Shown: in pieces, positions 9,213-51,235 of the stretch | Layout of the letters: the number at the start of each line of letters is the position of its first letter | How positions within the stretch are numbered: position 1 is the stretch's first letter | NCBI GenBank assembly: GCA_946495655.1 | Contig: CAMMDS010000002.1 | Span: 28,984 to 92,983 of the forward strand | DNA length: 64,000 bases | Direction: 5' to 3' | From: an uncultured Clostridium sp. | Lineage (GTDB): Bacteria; Bacillota; Clostridia; TANB77; CAG-508 | Made by a program: the position numbers and the translations under genes | The notes under the pieces: generated by a model | The model's database searches: none | Seen by the model: the letters and a program-made list of their open reading frames with translations, nothing else | What the model was told of the DNA's origin: nothing

Positions 9213-10085
9213 TTATTCTTCTCCTCTACCTTCTGGTAAAGCATTTGGAACTTCTACAACAACCTTAATTTTCATTATATATGAAATAGCTCTTACAAAT
9301 TTACTATTTTTAATACGTTGCCATAATGATGGTTTTACATCTACTCTTGTCTGCTCCATATACTCTTTATTTTCTGATGTCTCTTCTACTGGCTGTGGTT
9401 GTTCTACTACATTTTCTTCTATAGTAGTTTCCATTGGTTCTTCTGGAGTAGGGATTAATTTTAATGCATCTGCAACTTCAATTCCAATATAGCTTAATGC
9501 TTTTGATCTATCTTCTATTCTTTCCATATCTATCTCGATATGTAAGTTTGTTTCTAAGTTGCCTATTCTTGCATTAATAAGTTTTACTGCATCTTGATAA
9601 TTTTGTGATGTAGTTCCTTTTGATCTTCCTATTACTCCTAAAGTTTCTATTATATCTTCAGAGAAATCATTAGATATTGCTTTAATTGTTTCTTTCCAAT
9701 CTTCTGATTTATTTTCTACTGCATCTAAAGCATCTTTTAAACTAGCTGCTAGTGATATATTTTTTTCTCTTTGTCTTATTAAATCTTCTATTTTCTTTGT
9801 ATTCTCTTCAAATTGATTTGTTGCATATTCAACTAATCCATAAGCTGCTTTATATACACTTATTGGAAAATTCTTTTTCTTAGGATATTCAATTAAATAT
9901 GTTTTAACTGATTCTATTAAATCTTTAAAATATGCATCGTCTTCTAATTGAATTATTTGTTTTTTACTATTTGGATTTATTAATTTTTGTACTTTATCAA
10001 TATTTGATAAAATCTTTTCTTCCGTGATTACCATTCTCACGTTTACTATGCCAGATCTAGACATTGTAAACCTTCCCTCCTTCAT
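9213..10085 (-). CDS. Hypothetical protein (290 aa, acidic, coiled-coil-like)
   Basis: Long ORF with RBS. No recognisable family from the sequence alone. Confidence 0.5.
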   Translation of the reverse strand: MKEGRFTMSRSGIVNVRMVITEEKILSNIDKVQKLINPNSKKQIIQLEDDAYFKDLIESVKTYLIEYPKKKNFPISVYKAAYGLVEYATNQFEENTKKIEDLIRQREKNISLAASLKDALDAVENKSEDWKETIKAISNDFSEDIIETLGVIGRSKGTTSQNYQDAVKLINARIGNLETNLHIEIDMERIEDRSKALSYIGIEVADALKLIPTPEEPMETTIEENVVEQPQPVEETSENKEYMEQTRVDVKPSLWQRIKNSKFVRAISYIMKIKVVVEVPNALPEGRGEE

Positions 10086-10390
10086 CCTATGTAATGCTTA
10101 TTTCCGTAAGTATTTTTCTACTTTATAGGACCATTGTTTTCTAAATTTCATTATAATTTTATTACAAGTTTTCTATTAAGTCAAGAGTTTTTTTGTAATT
10201 ATTTGTCTTTTTTTCTTACGGAAATATACAACTCAAGAAAAACATTTTTTATTTATTCTTGAGTCGCAATTTCACTTTTATATAAAACATATTATATAAT
10301 TTTTAACTTAAATGAACACTCACCTTCAAAAGCTACTGAAGAAATATATAACATATATTATACAATTTTTAACTAACGCTTATATAACTT

Positions 10391-13090: not shown

Positions 13091-14095
13091 CTATTTTCTT
13101 CTATCTAATGTATCTAAATTATCTAATGCTTTACCTGTTCCTAAAGCAACACATGAAATAGCTTCTTGAGCAATCATAACATTTATTCCAGTTTTGGTTT
13201 GTAATAATTTATCTAGTCCATCTATTAAACATCCTCCACCAGTCATATATATTCCTCTATCGCTAATATCTGCTGCAAGTTCTGGTGGTGTTTTTTCTAA
13301 TACAGAGTGTACGCTATCAACAATAAGCATTGCTGGCTCTATAAGGGCTTCTAACATTTCACTAGAGTGAATAGTAACATTTTTTGGTAGTCCTGTTACT
13401 AAATCTCTTCCCCTTATTTCCATTTCTGTATCTTGTATTTTTGGGTATACACAACCAATATTTATTTTTAAATCTTCTGCTGTTCTTTCACCAATCATTA
13501 TATTATGCTTTTTCTTTATATATTTTACTATTGCTTCATCAAATTTATCTCCTGCAACTTTTAATGATTCACTTACAACAGAACCCCCAAGTGATATTAC
13601 AGCTATATCAGTAGTTCCTCCACCAATATCAACTACCATATTACCACATGGTTTAGAAATATCAATTCCTGCACCAATCGCAGCAGCTATTGGTTCTTCT
13701 ATTAAAAATACTTTTCTTGCTCCAGCTTGTGATGCAGCATCTATAACTGCCTTTTTTTCTACTTCAGTAACTTGTGAAGGTATACAAATCATTATACGTG
13801 GAGAGAAAACGAATTTACCACATATTTTATTTATGAAATATTTAAGCATTTTTTCTGTTACTGTATAATTTGAAATTACTCCATCTCTTAATGGTCTTGT
13901 AGCAATAATATTTCCTGGAGTTCTTCCAAGCATTCTCCTAGCTTCTTTTCCTACTGCCAACACTTCTCCTGTGTTATTATCTACCGCCACAACAGATGGT
14001 TCTCTTAGTACAATCCCTTTACCCTTTACATATGCAATAACTGTTGCTGTTCCAAGATCTATTCCTATGTCTTGTCCCCACTTAAACATTTCCAT
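13091..14095 (-). CDS. mreB: Rod-shape determining actin homolog, MreB/Mbl family
   Basis: IGIDLGTATV, DIGGGTTD motifs; 334 aa. Confidence 0.85.
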   Translation of the reverse strand: MEMFKWGQDIGIDLGTATVIAYVKGKGIVLREPSVVAVDNNTGEVLAVGKEARRMLGRTPGNIIATRPLRDGVISNYTVTEKMLKYFINKICGKFVFSPRIMICIPSQVTEVEKKAVIDAASQAGARKVFLIEEPIAAAIGAGIDISKPCGNMVVDIGGGTTDIAVISLGGSVVSESLKVAGDKFDEAIVKYIKKKHNIMIGERTAEDLKINIGCVYPKIQDTEMEIRGRDLVTGLPKNVTIHSSEMLEALIEPAMLIVDSVHSVLEKTPPELAADISDRGIYMTGGGCLIDGLDKLLQTKTGINVMIAQEAISCVALGTGKALDNLDTLDRRK

Positions 14096-14281
14096 CTTTC
14101 CTTTCCAATATTTCAGTTATATTTCATTTTTGTTACATTTTCGTTACAATTATATTACATTTATTACAAAATAGCAAATACTTTTTAATAAAATTGCAAG
14201 AAAAAATTACCTTTTAATATTTATATTATATTAAAAGGTAATTAAATTATACATTTTTAGTTAAATTAATTTGTTTCTATT

Positions 14282-23521: not shown

Positions 23522-23591
23522 CTACCATAGCTTAAGAATGCTTTACAAATATATATAATTTAAAAGAAAGGAGTTATTGTAGTTTTATTTT

Positions 23592-23775
23592 AAGCGCCTG
23601 GACGTATATATTCTAATACGTTGACGAGGAAGAAACCTATCGAAAGATTCGGCGGGTGGTTTCTTGGCAATGGTTACTGCCATAAATATTAGCAAAACCT
23701 GATAGTAATATCAGAATACAAATCTAATAGGGTAACCTTTATTTGTATTGCTTTCTTAAAATTCAGAACTAATTT
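23592..23775 (+). ncRNA. glmS ribozyme (GlcN6P-dependent self-cleaving riboswitch)
   Basis: AGCGCC cleavage-site start, conserved core GTTGACGAGG...TATCGAAAGATTCGGCGG matching the Bacillus glmS ribozyme. Located in the glmS 5' UTR. Confidence 0.85.
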
Positions 23776-23856: not shown

Positions 23857-25710
23857 ATGTGTGGTATTGTAGGATACATTGGTAGCAAAAAAGCTACACC
23901 TATTTTAATAGATGGACTTTTAAGTCTTGAATATAGAGGTTATGACTCAGCAGGAATTGCTACTATTGAAAAAGATGGTATTTCTGTTATGAAAGATAAA
24001 GGAAGAGTAAATAACTTAAATAATTTAGATGGTATAAATAATTTAGATGGTACAGTTGGTATAGCTCATACTAGATGGGCAACACATGGTAAGCCATCAA
24101 AAGAAAATTCTCATCCTCATAAAGATAATAGTGGAATGTTTGCAGTTGTTCATAATGGTATTATTGAGAATTATTCTGAACTTAGAGAATTTTTAACTTC
24201 AAAAGGTTATAGATTTTTATCTCAAACTGATACAGAAGTTATTCCAAATTTAATTCATTATTATTATACAAATGGACCAGTATCTATTTTAGAAAATGAA
24301 AGTGAAAAATTTTTAGGTGCTGTAAAATCAGCTATATATGATTTAAAAGGAAGTTATGCTATAGAAGCTATATCTCCAATATGTCCTGATAAAATTATTG
24401 TAGTAAGAAAAGATAGTCCATTAGTTATTGGAACAGGAAAAGAAGAAAATTACATTGCTTCTGATATTCCAGCTATATTAAAATATACAAAAGATTTCTA
24501 TTTATTAGATGATAATGAATTTGCAGTAGTAGAAAAAGATTGTGTTAGATTTTTTGATAATAGTTTAACAGAACATAATAAAGCTATAAAAAATATTGAA
24601 TGGGATGCAAATGCAGCAGGAAAAGACGGTTTTGAAGATTATATGCTTAAAGAAATCTTTGAGCAGCCAACAGCAATTAGAGAAACAATAGGTTCAAGAT
24701 TCCGTCTAGGCGAAAAATGTTCATTTGATGATATTGAATTATCTAAAGAATATTTAGAAAAAATCAACAAAATTTTTATCGTTGCCTGTGGAACAGCTAT
24801 GCATGCAGGTTTGGTTGGAAAAACAATTATAGAGAACTTATGTCAAATTCCTACAGAAGTAGATATAGCATCTGAATTTAGATATAGAAATCCAATAATA
24901 GATGAACATACTTTATGTATATATATAAGTCAATCTGGAGAAACAGCTGATACTATAGCTGCATTAAAACTTGCCAAATCAAAAGGAGCAAAAACACTTG
25001 CTATTTCAAATGTAATAGGAAGTTCAATAACAAGGGAAGCAGATTATTCTATATATACTCATGCAGGTCCAGAAATTGCAGTTGCATCAACTAAAGCTTA
25101 TACTTCTCAAGTAATGCTTATAGCAATTTTAGCAATGCATTTCGCAGAAATATTAGGAAGATCTTCTGAATCAGATATTGAATCATTAAAATCTGATATG
25201 ATTGATTTACCTTCTAAAATAGAAAAGATATTAGATGATAGTGAAATAATTAAAGAATTTGCAAAAAAAGTTTATACAGAAAAAGATATGTTTTTCTTAG
25301 GAAGAGGTACTGATTATAATGTTGCATTAGAAGGATCATTAAAATTGAAAGAAATTTCATATATTCATTCAGAAGCATATGCAGCTGGTGAATTAAAACA
25401 TGGTCCAATTGCACTTATAGAGAATGGTGTTACAGTTATAGGTATTATCACTAATCCAAATTTAGTTGAAAAATCTATTAGTAATATTCAAGAGGTAATA
25501 ACAAGAGGTGCTAAAACATTAATTATCACAAATCAAATACTTCCAAATAGTCATTTTGATTATGTAATTAATATTCCAGAAACAAATCCTCTTATCTCTC
25601 CTATTTTATCGGTAGTACCAATGCAACTCCTTGCATATTATATATCTAAATTCAAAGGTTTAGATGTTGACAAACCTAGAAACCTTGCAAAATCAGTAAC
25701 TGTTGAATAA
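23857..25710 (+). CDS. glmS: Glutamine--fructose-6-phosphate aminotransferase
   Basis: N-terminal MCGIVGY nucleophile, two SIS domains, C-terminal KSVTVE. Confidence 0.95.
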   Translation: MCGIVGYIGSKKATPILIDGLLSLEYRGYDSAGIATIEKDGISVMKDKGRVNNLNNLDGINNLDGTVGIAHTRWATHGKPSKENSHPHKDNSGMFAVVHNGIIENYSELREFLTSKGYRFLSQTDTEVIPNLIHYYYTNGPVSILENESEKFLGAVKSAIYDLKGSYAIEAISPICPDKIIVVRKDSPLVIGTGKEENYIASDIPAILKYTKDFYLLDDNEFAVVEKDCVRFFDNSLTEHNKAIKNIEWDANAAGKDGFEDYMLKEIFEQPTAIRETIGSRFRLGEKCSFDDIELSKEYLEKINKIFIVACGTAMHAGLVGKTIIENLCQIPTEVDIASEFRYRNPIIDEHTLCIYISQSGETADTIAALKLAKSKGAKTLAISNVIGSSITREADYSIYTHAGPEIAVASTKAYTSQVMLIAILAMHFAEILGRSSESDIESLKSDMIDLPSKIEKILDDSEIIKEFAKKVYTEKDMFFLGRGTDYNVALEGSLKLKEISYIHSEAYAAGELKHGPIALIENGVTVIGIITNPNLVEKSISNIQEVITRGAKTLIITNQILPNSHFDYVINIPETNPLISPILSVVPMQLLAYYISKFKGLDVDKPRNLAKSVTVE

Positions 25711-39459: not shown

Positions 39460-39912
39460 TCACCAATATCTCAAAGTAAAACTAATATTTTGAGTTATTG
39501 AATCTTCGGCATTTCTTCCAATTTGTAAATCTACATTAATAATATTTTTACTAACTGTATTTACAGTATAAGGTGATAATGTAAAATTACATCCTAATAT
39601 ATTTTGTGCTATACGTACATCATTCCTATAGATAAAATTGTTTTGATACGTATATACTGGCCCATCTTCGAATTCTATAGTGTTATTTGTTACTGTAGCA
39701 TTATCATAGTTTTTTACATCAGTAGCAAAAAACATGGCAAATTTATTGAATTCATTAATGTATTTGGGTGAATTAACTGCTTCCCCAATGTTAGCATAAA
39801 AAAATGTACTTATTGTAGTTAAAACACCTATAACCAAAGTTAGTATGAACATATATGCAACTAAAGCCGCTAACGTAATACCTTTTTCACTTTTAACTTT
39901 ATTTTTCCACAT
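39460..39912 (-). CDS. Minor pilin-like protein (prepilin-type N-terminus KG|ITLAALV, no Glu5)
   Basis: Class III signal-like N-terminus followed by a hydrophobic helix. Confidence 0.6.
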   Translation of the reverse strand: MWKNKVKSEKGITLAALVAYMFILTLVIGVLTTISTFFYANIGEAVNSPKYINEFNKFAMFFATDVKNYDNATVTNNTIEFEDGPVYTYQNNFIYRNDVRIAQNILGCNFTLSPYTVNTVSKNIINVDLQIGRNAEDSITQNISFTLRYW

Positions 39913-41317: not shown

Positions 41318-41554
41318 CTAATTTGTAGCTATGCCTTTTTCTGTTAGTATTCCATCAATGTAATGCTCTACGTTTGTAATAGACTGTTCTGTGTACTTTG
41401 TATCATTTGCATAGAACTCTTCAGCTTGCTCAGCACGTCCTATAAGTCCATCACTTCCAAAAGCAAATGTAATTGCTACTGTTGCTAAAATTATTAATAT
41501 AATTATTGTTATAACTAAAGCAACTAATGTGATACCCCTTTGATTCTTTAACAT
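41318..41554 (-). CDS. Short type IV pilin-like protein (78 aa), candidate major pilin. N-terminus QRG|ITLVALVITIIILIILATV lacks Glu5.
   Basis: Prepilin-like N-terminus. Followed by a long imperfect hairpin (41205-41285) before pilD. N-terminal 50 aa are homologous to the RCC1-fusion protein at 57845-59131. Confidence 0.65.
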   Translation of the reverse strand: MLKNQRGITLVALVITIIILIILATVAITFAFGSDGLIGRAEQAEEFYANDTKYTEQSITNVEHYIDGILTEKGIATN

Positions 41555-42068: not shown

Positions 42069-42752
42069 TTATTGTGTAATTTCATTTGATGTATCTGTAT
42101 TAGTTGTATCTGTTTCTGTATTAGTTGTTGTAGTACCATCTGATGTAGTAGACTCTACTGTAGTTGTTGTATTTTCTAAATCTATTCTAATACCAGTTAC
42201 ATTAAATGTTGCTTGTAGATTTTCTCCATCTGGAAGTAGATGAAAATTCTCTATTCTAAATTCTAGCTCGCTATCATTTTCAAGTGCTGATATAAATTCT
42301 ATTATTCCTGCATATTGTCCTGTTACTGTAAAATTTATATTCTTAACAGTAGAATCACCTGCGTCTCCAGATAACACATCCATTCTAAAATTTACACCCT
42401 CTGTTCTTGCATGTCTTCCTATTCTTAGCCATAGGTATTCAATTTTATAAACTTCTTGTGTATTAGCTTCATTTATTTCGCTTTCTGTACTAACATTAGC
42501 CAAATTATAATAGCTTTCTTTGTTTTCTAATAATACACTAACATTATCAGATAATTCTGTTTTTTTGTTTTGTAAATCGCTTTTTATTTTTATATTAGCT
42601 TCATTTATTTCTGTTGTTAAATTGTCATTAAGTTCTATTATACCTTGTGTACTCAAAATTTGAAATGAGCCTATAGAAATTCCTTGAAATATAGTGAAAT
42701 ATGCCAGAACAATTAATAATACGAGTAATACTGCTATTAAAATTTTTCTCAT
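42069..42752 (-). CDS. pilO: PilO-like pilus assembly protein
   Basis: Single N-terminal TM, coiled coil, periplasmic-type domain. Overlaps the pilMN stop by 4 nt. Confidence 0.55.
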   Translation of the reverse strand: MRKILIAVLLVLLIVLAYFTIFQGISIGSFQILSTQGIIELNDNLTTEINEANIKIKSDLQNKKTELSDNVSVLLENKESYYNLANVSTESEINEANTQEVYKIEYLWLRIGRHARTEGVNFRMDVLSGDAGDSTVKNINFTVTGQYAGIIEFISALENDSELEFRIENFHLLPDGENLQATFNVTGIRIDLENTTTTVESTTSDGTTTTNTETDTTNTDTSNEITQ

Positions 42753-44368
42753 GGCAAATCCCCCTCTATAACAATCTTGACAAAATCGCCTTGTTTTTCT
42801 CCTTGTGTAGAAACTACATTTGTTAATATTCTATCTTCTTTAAGTTTTGCTTTAAAATATCCTAATTCATCGTAATATCTAGATTGTGCATTAATTACTA
42901 TATGTCTTCCTTCTGAACCTGCAGTATTTTCAATTTCAGTTATTTGTACTTGTCTAGGTATAGCAGACATTATTTCTACTAATAGATTTGGAATTGAGTT
43001 TTTTAAGCTCAAATCATTTTCTATTTTGTCATTTATATTTCTAAGGTTGTCTTCCATTTCTTTATATCTATTAGCTTTTTGTTTTACTTCATTTATATCA
43101 CTATCTGCTAAAGCTATCTGAGCATCTGTATAATCGCTTACTTCTTGTGCTTCAACTATTTTATCATTTATTCTATTATTTAAATAAATAGAAAAACCTG
43201 AAAATAATATTGTAAGCATTAATACTCCAGCAGCACTTCTTAATAACCACTTTTCTGTAAGATCAAATTTTCCTTTCAAGCTAAAGTTAAGTTTTTTTCC
43301 ACTTTTCTTTTCTTTTTTTCCTAAACTTACATCTATCTTTAGCCAATCTGGTAATTGGTCTATAAGGCTTGGTTTTTTGAAATTCATGTTCTTGATACCA
43401 TAGCCTAATCCTTGCATTGCTATAGCAATTGCTGAATTCACTTCTATATAGTCTTTTATGTTTATTTTTACGCTTTCTGTGATGAAATAAGGTTTTAGTA
43501 CTTCGCATTTTTCTGTTTGGAAAAACTCTTGAAAATATAAATCTATATTATTTACAACTGACATTGTACCAGTCAAATAAATCTTTTCAAACTTCACAGT
43601 TGTACTAGCTACATATTCTTGTACTTTTGTTACTATTTTGTATAATGTAGGCATTATATAATCTAGATATTCATTTTCTTCGTCCTGTAATTCTTTTCCT
43701 TCCATTGTGTATATTGTAGAATTTTTACAAATCTCATACGCTTTAGAATATGAATTTTCTTTACTAGCAATTTTTCCTAATATATCTCCAGAACCTTCTT
43801 CTAGTTTTTCTACATTATATATTTTTTGATTTATTATACTAGTTATACTAGTATTTTCTTCTATATTTACAATTATTATGTTTTCCTTAGGTTTAATAGA
43901 TGCAATATTGGCAATACTAGTTCCTATTGGAGTTATTGTAGATACCTTGTAATCATTGAATGTTTGTAAAGTTTTTGAAATTGACGATTTGTTTGAAGAA
44001 ACATGTATTACTTTTACTTTATCTTTATCATCAATTTCATTCGATAACGCATATCTTGCTTCAAATGCATTTTTATTTAACTTTTTGTCATAACAATATG
44101 AATCAAATTCAGTATCTATAGCTTGTTTTAGATCATTCTTGTTAAGAAGGCTAAACATATAGAAATAGTTGTATATTTCTTCAGATAGATTTATACTTAT
44201 TGGTATATTATAGCTATAAGTTTCTGAAACAATTTGTTCTATTGCTTCACCAATTTTTTCATAAAACTTTACTCCAAAAGATTCTATCTTTAAAAGTTCA
44301 CGATCTTTGGTTACTTTTGCATATTTAATTACATTGTTTTCTATATATAATCCTAAACAGCTAGACAT
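42749..44368 (-). CDS. pilMN: PilM-PilN fusion protein
   Basis: Actin-like PilM domain of about 330 aa, TM segment LLRSAAGVLMLTILFSGFSIYL, then PilN-like coiled-coil domain. Confidence 0.8.
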   Translation of the reverse strand: MSSCLGLYIENNVIKYAKVTKDRELLKIESFGVKFYEKIGEAIEQIVSETYSYNIPISINLSEEIYNYFYMFSLLNKNDLKQAIDTEFDSYCYDKKLNKNAFEARYALSNEIDDKDKVKVIHVSSNKSSISKTLQTFNDYKVSTITPIGTSIANIASIKPKENIIIVNIEENTSITSIINQKIYNVEKLEEGSGDILGKIASKENSYSKAYEICKNSTIYTMEGKELQDEENEYLDYIMPTLYKIVTKVQEYVASTTVKFEKIYLTGTMSVVNNIDLYFQEFFQTEKCEVLKPYFITESVKINIKDYIEVNSAIAIAMQGLGYGIKNMNFKKPSLIDQLPDWLKIDVSLGKKEKKSGKKLNFSLKGKFDLTEKWLLRSAAGVLMLTILFSGFSIYLNNRINDKIVEAQEVSDYTDAQIALADSDINEVKQKANRYKEMEDNLRNINDKIENDLSLKNSIPNLLVEIMSAIPRQVQITEIENTAGSEGRHIVINAQSRYYDELGYFKAKLKEDRILTNVVSTQGEKQGDFVKIVIEGDLP

Positions 44369-44535
44369 TTTATTCTCCTTCGTTTAAATTTGCACCATTA
44401 TTATATTTTGCAAAATGCAACAAATAATACTTGTATTTTTTTCCTTTTATTTTTCAACAATATAATTACAGTTCTTTTAATATTTTATCTTTTTTTATAA
44501 AAAAGTCAATATAAATTAAAAGATTTAATATAAAT

Positions 44536-44566
44536 GTAATATTTTTGTAATATTTTTGTAATATTT
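44536..44566 (-). promoter_or_regulatory. Three tandem GTAATATTTTT (11-bp) repeats upstream of the pilus operon
   Basis: TGTAATATTTTTGTAATATTTTTGTAATATTT about 170 nt upstream of the pilMN start. The same array occurs at 59249-59276 upstream of the pilin-RCC1 gene. Confidence 0.5.
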
Positions 44567-44671
44567 CCAATTTTTGTTTTTATTAAATCGAATTTAAACA
44601 GAATAATAGAACAAGTAAAAAAATAATTTCGAATATGTCGGTCAAGCTAATTTTCGCAGGTATTCTAAAAA

Positions 44672-44722
44672 AATTTTGGCAGCGCCCTCACGAAAGCGTG
44701 AGATTCCCTACCAAAATTTTTA
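44672..44722 (-). terminator. uppP terminator (CTCACGAAAGCGTGAG hairpin within a larger stem, T-run on the minus strand)
   Basis: GC-rich stem with GAAA tetraloop. Minus-strand T7 tract follows. Confidence 0.5.
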
Positions 44723-44844
44723 AAGATTACCTATGCTCAAATTACATTCCATTCCATATTCTCATTATTTTTTTACTTGTTCTATTATTCTATATATTAT
44801 TCTATATAATATTTTTTTATTAAATACTTTCAAATAAATACACT

Positions 44845-45651
44845 TTACATTCTTACAATTGCAAATATTAAAATTATAATACCAAATATAACTCTATATA
44901 TTGCAAAACCTTTAAAACTTCCCTTTTGCAAATAATGTAGTAACCACTTTATTACAATTATACCTACAATAAAACTTGCTAATATTCCGACAAAAAATGA
45001 AACACTAAATACAAAATCTTTTATTTTAAATATTGTTGCTGCAAATACAATAGGTGCAGAAAGCATGAAAGAATATCTCGCAGCAGAAGTTCTATCTACT
45101 CCCATTGCTCTTCCTGTTGTCATTGTAATTCCTGATCTAGAAACTCCAGGAATAAAAGCTAAACATTGTGAAAGTCCAATTAAAAAAGTTTGTTTAAATG
45201 TCATGTGCTCATAATCTGTTGTTGATTTCGATTTTTTATCAACGAAATATAAAATTATACCCATTATAATTAATGCAATCGCAATTATAACTGGTTTTTT
45301 TAGAATGTCTCCAGCAAATGTATCTAATAATAATCCTATTATACCACCAGGTATTGTAGCAATAACTAAATACCAAAACATTCTTCCTTCAGTTGTTTTT
45401 TTCTTTTTTACTACTTGATTAAATCCACCAACAATCAATCTAATCCAATCTTTGAAGAAAAATAGAGCAATTGCCAAAAATGTTCCAAAATGTAAAGCTA
45501 CATCAAAACCTTCAAACGCTATATTAAATTCTGGATTAGCAGTCCAATTTAAAAGCCATGGTATAATGTCTAAATGTCCTGAACTAGATATTGGTAATAG
45601 TTCTGTCAATCCCTGTATAATTCCTAATATTAATGCTTGTAAAACTGTCAT
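44845..45651 (-). CDS. uppP: Undecaprenyl-diphosphatase
   Basis: ELLPISSSGHL motif, 8-TM BacA family. Confidence 0.9.
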   Translation of the reverse strand: MTVLQALILGIIQGLTELLPISSSGHLDIIPWLLNWTANPEFNIAFEGFDVALHFGTFLAIALFFFKDWIRLIVGGFNQVVKKKKTTEGRMFWYLVIATIPGGIIGLLLDTFAGDILKKPVIIAIALIIMGIILYFVDKKSKSTTDYEHMTFKQTFLIGLSQCLAFIPGVSRSGITMTTGRAMGVDRTSAARYSFMLSAPIVFAATIFKIKDFVFSVSFFVGILASFIVGIIVIKWLLHYLQKGSFKGFAIYRVIFGIIILIFAIVRM

Positions 45652-48809: not shown

Positions 48810-51143
48810 TTATTTATATAATTTTTCTATTGCCCTTTCAACCGCTTCTCTTTCATCCCAGTAATATTGTACTCCTTTAATTTCTTGATATTGTTCATGT
48901 CCTTTTCCGATTAAAAGAATAATATCTCCATTTTCTGCATTCTTCATTGCGTACTCTATTGCTTCTTGTCTATCTTCTATAATAATGTATTTGCCATTAC
49001 TTCTATTTAATCCTGTGATTATATCATTATTAATAGATTCAATTTCTTCAAATCTAGGATTGTCCTCTGTAAGAATTGTAAGCCCTGCATATTTTCCTGA
49101 TATTTCTCCCATATCATATCTTCTATCTCTTGCTCTGTTTCCGCCACCACCGAAGATGCAAACTATTCTTTTTGGTTTATACTCCATTATTGTTTCCATT
49201 AAATTAGTCATTTCATCTTCATTATGAGCATAATCTATAATTAATTTGTATTTATCATTTGAAACAGCAAGTTCCATTCTTCCTTTAACAGAAACTGTTG
49301 TTAACACTTTCTTCATTGCATCTTTACTTATTCCTATTTCATTTGCAATTGTGATTGCACACAATGAATTATATACGGAAAATCTTCCTGGAATTGATAC
49401 CTCAAACTTATCATTTATTTTTCCTGCTACATCAAATCCCATTCCTAAGAATTTATCATTCATAATAAATTTTATATTTGAAGCTCTCATATCTAAATCT
49501 TCTTCGTTCATTCCAAATCTAATAACTTTACAAGTGTGATTTTTCAATATATTTTCATAATTTTTATCATCGGCATTTATAATCCCTGTATTACATTTTT
49601 GGAATAATAAACTTTTACAGAACATATATTCTTCAAAACTTTCATGTTCATTTGGTCCAATATGTTCTTTTGATATATTTGTAAAAACACCATAATCAAA
49701 TGTAAATCCATCTACTCTGTGCATTTTTAATCCTTGTGATGATACTTCCATTATTGCATATTTACAACCTTCGTCGCACATCTCTCTGAATAGTTTTTGT
49801 ATTTCATAATTTTCTGGCGTTGTATTATGAAGAGGAATTTTTCTCTTTCCAATAAAAGCTCCTATTGTGCCAATCAAACCTGCTTTTTTTCCATCAGCTT
49901 CTATCATTCTTTTTAATATTGTTGATGTTGATGTTTTTCCTGCAGTTCCTGTTATTCCTATAACAGTCAATTCTTTTGCTGGATAATTAAAATACGCAGC
50001 AGATATTTCTGCCATTGCTTCTCTTGATGATTTAACCCTTATTACTGTTATATCTTCTTTTGGCATATCTATTTCTTTTTCTATTACTATTACTTTTGCA
50101 CCTTTTTTTATAACATCTGGAATATATTTATGTCCATCTGACGTAGCTCCCACCTTTGCTACATACATATCATCTTTTTCTACTTTTCTAGAATCATCTT
50201 TCACATCAGATATTTCTACATTTAAACTACCTTTTACTAACTCATAATCCACATTTCTTAATAATTGTGTTAATTCTGTAGTTCTGTTCTTTTTTATAAT
50301 GTTATCAACATCTATTTCTGATTCAAATACTGTATGAGATGGGCCTTTCATAAACATTTTTCCGCTTTTTTCATCCCAATTTGTTTCAAGTATTCCTCCT
50401 ATTTGATGAACATTAACTTTTCTATCACATCGTCCTGTTAAAACTGCTGCTACTGTTGCTGTACAACATCCAGTTCCACAACCTATTGTTTCTCCAGTTC
50501 CTCTTTCCCATTCTCTTATTTTTATATTATTTCTATCTATTACTTGTGCAAACGTTACATTAGTTTTATTTGGGAATAACTCTGTTTTATATTCAATTGC
50601 CTTTCCATATTTTTCTACATCAAAATTATCTACATCATCTATAAACATTACACAATGAGGATTTCCCCATGAAATTGCAGTTATTTTTAATGTTTTATCT
50701 AATACTTTTACTTCTTGCTCTACAAATTCTGTTAAATCTGTATTTACTGGAATAACACTAGTATCTAATACTGGTTTTCCAATATTAGCTTCTATGTTTA
50801 TCGCTTTTCCATTTTCTACTGTTAATTTTACATGTTGAATTCCACCTAATGTTTCTATTTCTAATTCTGTTTTGTCTGTTAAATTATGATCATATACATA
50901 TTTGCTTAAACTTCTTAATGCATTACCACACATTTCTCCTTCTGTACCATCTGGATTAAACATTCTCATTTTAAAATCTGCAACATCAGAACTACATATT
51001 AGAACTAAGCCATCAGAACCAACCCCAAAATGTCTATTACTTAGATATTTAGCAAGTTCATGCACATTATTAATTTTTTGATTAATTGCATCTATATATA
51101 CATAGTCATTACCATATGCTTGCATTTTTGTAAATTTTGTCAT
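48810..51143 (-). CDS. Bifunctional fusion: diaminopimelate epimerase (DapF) N-terminal domain plus UDP-N-acetylmuramoyl-tripeptide (meso-DAP-adding) ligase MurE-like C-terminal domain
   Basis: N-terminus MTKFTKMQAYGNDYVYID, catalytic Cys motifs GEMCGNA and GCGTGCCT (DapF). C-terminus GITGTAGKTSTS P-loop and DNPR motif (MurE). Start at 51143 after GGGAGG. Confidence 0.8.
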   Translation of the reverse strand: MTKFTKMQAYGNDYVYIDAINQKINNVHELAKYLSNRHFGVGSDGLVLICSSDVADFKMRMFNPDGTEGEMCGNALRSLSKYVYDHNLTDKTELEIETLGGIQHVKLTVENGKAINIEANIGKPVLDTSVIPVNTDLTEFVEQEVKVLDKTLKITAISWGNPHCVMFIDDVDNFDVEKYGKAIEYKTELFPNKTNVTFAQVIDRNNIKIREWERGTGETIGCGTGCCTATVAAVLTGRCDRKVNVHQIGGILETNWDEKSGKMFMKGPSHTVFESEIDVDNIIKKNRTTELTQLLRNVDYELVKGSLNVEISDVKDDSRKVEKDDMYVAKVGATSDGHKYIPDVIKKGAKVIVIEKEIDMPKEDITVIRVKSSREAMAEISAAYFNYPAKELTVIGITGTAGKTSTSTILKRMIEADGKKAGLIGTIGAFIGKRKIPLHNTTPENYEIQKLFREMCDEGCKYAIMEVSSQGLKMHRVDGFTFDYGVFTNISKEHIGPNEHESFEEYMFCKSLLFQKCNTGIINADDKNYENILKNHTCKVIRFGMNEEDLDMRASNIKFIMNDKFLGMGFDVAGKINDKFEVSIPGRFSVYNSLCAITIANEIGISKDAMKKVLTTVSVKGRMELAVSNDKYKLIIDYAHNEDEMTNLMETIMEYKPKRIVCIFGGGGNRARDRRYDMGEISGKYAGLTILTEDNPRFEEIESINNDIITGLNRSNGKYIIIEDRQEAIEYAMKNAENGDIILLIGKGHEQYQEIKGVQYYWDEREAVERAIEKLYK

Positions 51144-51235
51144 TTTTATTCCTCCCATATTTTGGATAATTTAAACAGACTTATTTAATCAAAATTAATA
51201 GTTTAACCTTGATTAAATATGCCTGCTCTACTTTT

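Follow-up and report, generated by a model that had tools for sequence, protein, structure and literature searches.

The question raised by this locus is what a short tandem repeat is doing in front of two separate sets of pilus genes. The window, by which we mean the whole stretch of 64,000 nucleotides that was analysed, has a base composition of about 27-29% GC and carries the majority of its genes on the minus strand. Two of these minus-strand genes, the first gene of a pilus operon (here called pilMN) and a gene for an RCC1-repeat protein with a pilin-like N-terminus (RCC1-pilin), are each preceded by an array of 11-bp units. An earlier note on this DNA took the arrays for the binding site of a shared regulator, and therefore for a sign of co-regulation of the RCC1-pilin with the pilus machinery. 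Our analysis supports a direct-repeat regulator site, and hence co-regulation of the two genes, as the best reading of the sequence, in view of a footprint kept in 28 species and of the phasing of the repeats. A role specific to pili did not hold up, the element being present also at mreB and other genes. Overall, the array is probably the operator of a broader regulon with a link to envelope and division.

The operon was assigned to pilus assembly because the genes after pilMN include, according to Pfam, an A24 prepilin peptidase, two T2SSE ATPases and a T2SSF platform protein, together with a 78-aa pilin that carries an N-terminal methylation (N_methyl) motif. No significant Pfam match was obtained for the PilMN protein itself, nor for the next protein of 227 aa (42069-42752). 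The RCC1 protein has seven RCC1 repeats, and its N-terminal 64 aa are 58% identical to the 78-aa pilin of the operon. Co-expression would be functionally sensible, since the RCC1-pilin has this N-terminal module in common with the operon pilin. As to the pilin-like N-termini in general (41318-41554, 57845-59131 and 39460-39912), they read ITLVALV or ITLAALV directly after a G, with Ala and not the usual Glu at +5, and their N_methyl Pfam score of 20.7 lies slightly under the cut-off of 21.2 bits.

Table 1. Coordinates of the arrays, genes and predicted promoter elements in the window.
Feature	Position	Strand	Basis
Array upstream of pilMN, three perfect units, gene sense ATATTACAAAA x3	44535..44566	minus	direct reading; conserved in 28 related loci
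Fourth, variant repeat at pilMN, in 11-bp register, gene sense ATTAAA	44529..44524	minus	RTTAAA across 28 species
Predicted sigma-A promoter P1 of the pilus operon	-35 TTGACT 44509..44504; -10 (GA)TAAAAT 44487..44482	minus	promoter scan; 28-species conservation
Conserved pilMN leader block GGAAAAAAATACAAGTATTATTTGTTRCATTTTGYAAAAYATAATA	44395..44444	minus	about 50 nt, nearly invariant in 27 species
pilMN, first pilus-operon gene, 539 aa	42749-44368	minus	without Pfam match
Hairpin followed by T run, likely clpC terminator	59345..59300	minus	read from sequence; terminator scan made no call
Array upstream of RCC1-pilin gene, three units, gene sense ATTACAagaatATTACAaaaatATTACA	59248..59275	minus	identical in 3 other strains of the same species
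Candidate promoters of RCC1-pilin gene	59194..59232	minus	deduced from sequence
RCC1-repeat protein with pilin-like N-terminus	57845-59131	minus	Pfam; alignment to operon pilin
Third array, four TGTAAY and two TGAAAT units in mreB sense	14110..14168	minus	Tandem Repeats Finder; pattern scan
mreB	13091-14095	minus	PF06723, E = 5e-145

Direct reading and Tandem Repeats Finder bear out the three-copy arrays described in the earlier note. Both arrays have a period of 11, with 2.9 copies and 100% match at pilMN and 2.7 copies and 94% match at the RCC1-pilin gene, where the program extends the array to 59246-59275. On the plus strand, each consists of three copies of TGTAAT-N5: the units are TGTAATATTTT, TGTAATATTTT and TGTAATATTTCC in the case of pilMN, and (TT)TGTAATATTTT, TGTAATATTCT and TGTAATCAGG in the case of the RCC1-pilin gene. 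The orientation relative to the minus-strand gene is the same at both sites, and the distances to the start codons (168 nt to pilMN, 118 nt to RCC1-pilin) are as previously claimed.

The arrays clearly exceed what the base composition of the window would provide. The pattern TGTAAY-N5-TGTAAY-N5-TGTAAY, with at most 2 mismatches, gave 7 overlapping matches at 3 loci of the window against 0.12 expected from 100 dinucleotide-preserving shuffles. Similarly, TGTWAH-N5-TGTWAH occurs 8 times in the window (1.42 expected), and six of these eight matches lie inside the three arrays. The single 11-mer GTAATATTTTT, allowing 1 mismatch, was found 22 times in the window against an expectation of 13.7, which is no significant enrichment; single units of the GATAATATTTTT type were consequently dropped. 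Thus, the signal is the phased array and not the lone 11-mer.

We infer the promoters at both sites from their likeness to consensus elements. The predicted promoter P1 of the pilus operon has a spacer of 16-17 nt and a predicted start near 44475, so that the array lies upstream of its -35 and -10 elements; the earlier note had also considered that the repeats might be located downstream of the start of transcription. Further down, the conserved leader block includes AAGTATTA, one RTTACA hexamer and a (T/C)ATAAT element, and could be a second promoter or operator. The RCC1-pilin gene probably has its own promoter, because the hairpin and T run in front of it are read as the clpC terminator. 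Here three candidate elements were identified. Firstly, a -10 element TAAAAT (59219..59214) within GATAAAAT, in which case the array abuts the -35 position and the predicted start is near 59207. Secondly, a promoter found by the scan, TTGATA (59223..59218), N18 and AATAAT (59199..59194), with a predicted start near 59187. Thirdly, TTGAAA at 59232..59227. Apart from the array, the upstream regions of pilMN and RCC1-pilin have nothing in common but the octamer GATAAAAT, the -10 region of pilMN P1, and the geometry between array and promoter differs between the two. A further sequence common to both leaders, AAGTATTAT, was set aside, as its occurrence is at chance level by rough estimate.

Important insight was gained from related genomes. 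Scanning species-representative genomes with the PilMN protein yielded 28 loci, in which PilMN and the adjoining 227-aa protein keep 52-84% identity across 28 species despite having no Pfam match. All of these loci belong to metagenome-assembled genomes of uncultured gut Clostridia with low GC and small genomes, one of them a 1.57-Mb circular chromosome. The array is kept, in the same orientation, in every pilMN locus that includes the upstream region (28 species). When the 28 upstream regions were aligned on the last hexamer, the TTACA cores were identical in 27-28 of the 28 sequences, the first base of the RTTACA hexamer was A or G and never T, and the T preceding each hexamer was found in 23-27 species. 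The information content is 0.8-1.4 bits in the spacers and about 0.2-0.9 bits in the flank upstream of the array. Also kept across the 28 species are the fourth, variant repeat (RTTAAA, at +11 to +16 of the alignment and conserved in 24-28 of 28) and the promoter TTGACT-N17-(GA)TAAAAT. In 26 species, 25-26 nt separate the last perfect hexamer from TTGACT; the two species that diverge most have 15 nt there. The two distances are one helical turn apart, which is what one would predict for a bound protein that has to face the polymerase. Altogether, the alignment makes the pilMN array a clear phylogenetic footprint.

In the case of the RCC1-pilin gene, the array does not differ between the window and three further strains of this species. 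As a search for RCC1-pilin homologues was dominated by the RCC1 repeats, the orthologous locus was reached via the clpC neighbours instead. In three sister species (L299, L301 and L303; ClpC 91-94% identical), ldh comes straight after clpC, with neither RCC1 gene nor array, and it is for this reason that the array is seen only in strains of one species. On this comparison, array, promoter and RCC1-pilin gene make up a species-specific cassette, and its absence between clpC and ldh in the three sisters marks it as a recent insertion. More distant genes for pilin-Ig-RCC1 proteins, with L031 and L035-L038 as the nearest full-length relatives, have ordinary promoters and no array; these relatives are not clearly of the same clade. 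The number of RCC1 repeats varies between strains, the proteins having 428 versus 278 aa (compared with L032, 10001-10837). Between the clpC stop codon and its likely terminator there is also a (CT)13 microsatellite at 59404-59429, which is (AG)13 in gene sense; in the same-species strains L032-L034 it has about 6 units and other flanking bases, and the array is unchanged.

According to the earlier note, no such array was to be found elsewhere in the window. This turned out to be wrong, as a related array lies upstream of mreB. It reads, on the minus strand, TGTAAT aaa TGTAAT ataat TGTAAC gaaaa TGTAAC aaaaa TGAAAT ataac TGAAAT, that is, six units in 11-bp phase, and its orientation relative to its gene is opposite to that of the pilus arrays. 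Moreover, it overlies the predicted mreB promoter (-35 TTGCTA 14177..14172, N17, -10 TATAAT 14154..14149) and the leader up to the ribosome-binding site. Through MreB homologues, the core TGTAATATAATTGTAAC with one or two further units was found upstream of mreB in two more species, one of them of the Clostridium sp. CAG:798 type, where the neighbours of mreB differ. The same core precedes mreB in the metagenome contig L218. The mreB and clpC loci of relatives contained no triple array besides the expected site. The motif is also not abundant in unrelated AT-rich intergenic DNA, an objection raised beforehand in the earlier note: in 604 kb (the window and loci L001-L030), three TTAC cores at 11-bp phase were found nowhere beyond the pilMN promoters and the RCC1 and mreB sites.

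To describe the wider distribution of the array, metagenome contigs were scanned with a stricter pattern that excludes arrays with a flank of the pilMN type. This stricter pattern was used because a generic triple-hexamer scan of viral contigs gave at least 120 matches, unrelated ones included; the resulting genes are a sample and not the regulon. The array was found upstream of ftsA in at least 8 low-GC metagenome contigs, ending 7-8 or 18 nt before TTGACW. Among the matches listed from low-GC contigs, arrays also precede sepF, mreB, veg, a gene for a cell-wall hydrolase (Hydrolase_2 and PG_binding_1 domains) and a pilMN homologue. Again among the matches listed, others stand before a PrgI gene, a Crp-like regulator, PPDK and pyrB, and before a thiolase gene or the adjoining divergent lipoprotein gene. 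Division, shape and cell-wall genes thus dominate the recognisable array-linked genes in these matches; non-envelope genes occur too, and phosphate-related genes were absent from those listed. The gaps between array and promoter in the metagenome contigs fall in the series 7-8/18 and 35-36/46. As the element is also present at mreB, ftsA, sepF, veg and the cell-wall hydrolase gene, the regulon would be broader than the pilus machinery. Two further observations came from these scans. In at least 11 metagenome contigs, a triple array stands about 115 nt before homologues of a protein of 290 aa and unknown function (9213-10085); the window copy has, in the region 10086-10260, a single ATTACA 8 nt before TTGACT. 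Secondly, gttctgaaacaattatttcgcatccGTTACATACATATTACAATGATGTTACAacctgcgg is nearly identical in L200, L216, L233, L253, L258, L259, L268, L279, L289, L290 and L294 (44-51% GC) and is an unrelated conserved element.

Which protein could recognise such an array? Head-to-tail hexamers at 11-bp spacing are a hallmark of response regulators of the OmpR/PhoB family (PMC6222199). In this family, the consensus of WalR (YycF/VicR) in B. subtilis and S. aureus is TGTWAH-N5-TGTWAH (PMC9210968; PMC4168254), refined to TGTWAHA-N4-TGTWAHA for VicR of S. mutans, where footprinted high-affinity sites include TGTAAT-N5-CGTAAT and TGTTAT-N5-TGTAAC (PMC4168254). Exact matches to TGTWAH-N5-TGTWAH direct repeats are found at 44535-44562, 59248-59275 and 14132-14159, and every unit of both pilus-related arrays has an A as seventh base (TGTAATA), which fits the S. 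mutans refinement; its counterpart in gene sense is the T before RTTACA that 23-27 of the 28 species have. Among the Firmicutes so far examined, peptidoglycan hydrolases belong to the core set of genes under WalR (PMC9210968), and in B. subtilis YycF/WalR is reported to target ftsAZ (Fukuchi et al. 2000, cited in PMC9210968). The likeness to WalR boxes thus extends from the hexamer sequence, the head-to-tail spacing and the seventh base to the placement of the sites, upstream of the -35 element at genes expected to be activated and over the promoter in the case of expected repression, and to targets that include division, shape and cell-wall genes. Two points are different: known WalR sites usually have two hexamers, whereas the arrays described here have 3-6 in register, and in the literature searched no link of WalR to type IV pili is reported. 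Because of the match to the hexamer consensus and the ftsA and cell-wall type of targets, we favour a regulator of the WalR type, and it is reasonably probable that a winged-helix response regulator of the OmpR/PhoB family with WalR/VicR-type specificity uses the array as its operator.

The alternative that survives best is that the array is bound by some other sequence-specific regulator with its own signal, for example surface contact, nutrient or growth phase. This could be another OmpR/PhoB paralogue, similar to PhoP, SaeR or RR_1586, or an unrelated oligomerising protein. Proteins of the OmpR family generally use head-to-tail repeats of 10-11 bp with closely similar motifs: RR_1586 of C. 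difficile binds 11-bp direct repeats of the type DRTTAAGNWWW (PMC6222199), and the PhoB consensus consists of CTGTCAT repeats (quoted in PMC4168254). The operators of E. coli PhoB, B. subtilis PhoP and C. difficile RR_1586 (DRTTAAGNWWW x2) resemble the arrays in being tandem 11-bp direct repeats that adjoin or replace the -35 element, but their cores are TTHACA-N5 (PhoP) or RTTAAG (RR_1586), in contrast to RTTACA here. Taking the B. subtilis PhoP box to be TTHACA, we judged that a first base which is never T in 28 species fits WalR better than PhoP. Arrays before thiolase, PPDK and pyrB genes, among the matches listed, speak for a different regulator, and so does the fact that walRK genes were not seen in the window or in about 0.9 Mb of clade loci. 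Against this stand the exact match of hexamer and seventh base to the footprinted WalR/VicR consensus and the dominance, again among the matches listed, of division, shape and cell-wall genes among the recognisable targets. We therefore regard a regulator other than WalR as rather unlikely; given the metabolic genes linked to arrays and the mutual similarity of OmpR-family motifs, a paralogue nevertheless stays a serious rival.

Much less plausible is an effect of DNA shape, in which phased A-tracts (AAAAA once per 11 bp) would curve the DNA or offer a UP-like contact to the alpha subunit of RNA polymerase, with no dedicated regulator. The spacers in the window are indeed A5 tracts, in phase with the helix and immediately before a promoter of the sigma-A type, an arrangement that recalls the plc promoter of Clostridium perfringens, another low-GC clostridial promoter with phased A-tracts upstream of its -35 element. 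However, conservation resides in the hexamers here: the invariant positions over 28 species are the TTACA cores, and the spacers vary (AAAAT, GAAAT, TTTAT, ATTAT, ACAAT, AAGAT). The arrays at mreB and in many metagenome contigs, moreover, have no A-tracts, occur in both orientations and in some cases lie over the -10 element. As the hexamers and not the A-tracts are conserved, and mreB-type arrays lack A-tracts, this explanation fails and we hold it to be very improbable.

Neutral tandem repeats would have arisen by minisatellite slippage in AT-rich DNA, and their likeness at the two loci would be due to chance or to a duplicated promoter fragment. In favour of this are the base composition of about 27% GC, the 115 short arrays listed for the window by Tandem Repeats Finder and a slight variation in copy number among species (L014 and L015 have four perfect units). 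This reading can nevertheless be dismissed almost entirely, for the arrays significantly exceed the shuffles, their phasing is fixed in 28 species in which the flanks diverge, the nearby (CT)n tract differs between strains and the array does not, and the two upstream regions share too little (only array and octamer) for a simple duplication.

Other known ways of controlling pili were also compared. In Clostridioides difficile, a c-di-GMP-II riboswitch is located upstream of pilA1. It is likewise a cis-acting element in front of a clostridial type IV pilus operon, but it is an RNA, whereas the array is a DNA element upstream of the predicted promoter. Rfam gave nothing in the pilus upstream region at the gathering threshold, nor at E <= 1 over 44340-44860, and the consensus fold of 27 pilMN leaders by RNAalifold had no base pairs. 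A cis-regulatory RNA was ruled out by the position of the array upstream of the predicted promoter, the lack of an Rfam match and the lack of a consensus structure. In Pseudomonas and Myxococcus, PilR binds tandem sites upstream of pilA; it is an NtrC-type enhancer-binding protein that acts on a sigma-54 promoter. A two-component response regulator on tandem repeats upstream of a pilin promoter is what we propose here too, but the promoter is of the sigma-A type (TTGACT-N17-TAAAAT), and on reading the pilMN leader no -24/-12 element was seen. Judged on the motifs that they recognise, several more candidates were set aside as array binders: Spo0A (0A box TGTCGAA), MraZ (GTGG repeats), LytTR regulators (9-bp repeats about 21 bp apart), TnrA/GlnR (inverted repeats), CtsR and sigma-54.

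The gene for the regulator was searched as well. All ORFs of the 64-kb window were read, and none encodes a response regulator of any kind. A tblastn search with a B. subtilis WalR sequence found none in about 0.9 Mb of clade loci; window and loci cover a small part of a genome of roughly 1.5 Mb. Two matches, in L270 and L194, are on higher-GC contigs and kilobases away from the arrays there. About 4.4 kb past the right end of the window, a protein of 148 aa (L032, 292-738) has only the C-terminal DNA-binding domain of Spo0A (PF08769), with no space for a receiver domain after gatB.

Reading the window also revealed features apart from the arrays. A single ORF of 782 aa (48810-51158) fuses DapF (diaminopimelate epimerase) with a Mur ligase, the Pfam domains being taken from the identical gene in L002. 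At 55957-56632, Hemolysin-III is split in two ORFs of 140 and 82 aa; as the sister species L303 has one Hemolysin-III gene of 224 aa, the split copy is probably a pseudogene. An ordinary glmS ribozyme (23582-23739; Rfam RF00234, 89 bits) precedes glmS (23857-25710).

Returning to an OmpR-family regulator of WalR-type specificity, a mechanism can be outlined in which each plus-strand hexamer TGTAAT(A) would be one half-site, and half-sites 11 bp apart would be bound head-to-tail by dimers. That a protein binds the arrays, which protein this is and the sign of regulation are what we infer from motif and position. At pilMN, three perfect repeats and one variant repeat would accommodate two dimers. 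This array would lie at about -91 to -49 from the predicted start, an activator position. The RCC1-pilin array would lie at about -68 to -41, or at about -88 to -61 with the alternative promoter, and thus in an activator position either way. Since both arrays are in such positions, the phosphorylated regulator would activate both genes: by bringing in RNA polymerase, it would turn on the pilus machinery at the same time as the RCC1-tipped pilin. In the case of mreB, the reversed array across the -10 element and leader would be in a repressor position, and the regulator probably represses this gene.

The mechanism as such, an OmpR-family regulator acting on phased direct repeats, is textbook; the novelty is in the target, type IV pili, and in arrays of multiple units. 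The array is a sharply defined motif which would tie the pilus operon, an RCC1-repeat pilin (likely an adhesin) and genes of cell shape and division to one regulator. The regulon would take in the pilus operon throughout the lineage and, within this one species, also the RCC1-pilin cassette. Going one step further, we tentatively suggest, as a possibility rather than an expectation, that WalRK, the essential two-component system of the cell envelope, or a regulator that has taken over its motif, directly controls type IV pili and accessory pilins alongside ftsA, sepF and mreB across the lineage. If this is true, pilus production would be wired into the programme of cell-wall growth and division and would not be under a dedicated pilus regulator, and new adhesin-pilin cassettes could join the regulon merely by carrying the array. 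The gut Clostridia concerned are uncultured, so that footprints of cis-elements are among the few ways into their regulation. Should the regulator be WalR, type IV pili would form a new class of WalR target, and the motif could be used to read envelope-linked regulons straight from metagenome-assembled genomes.
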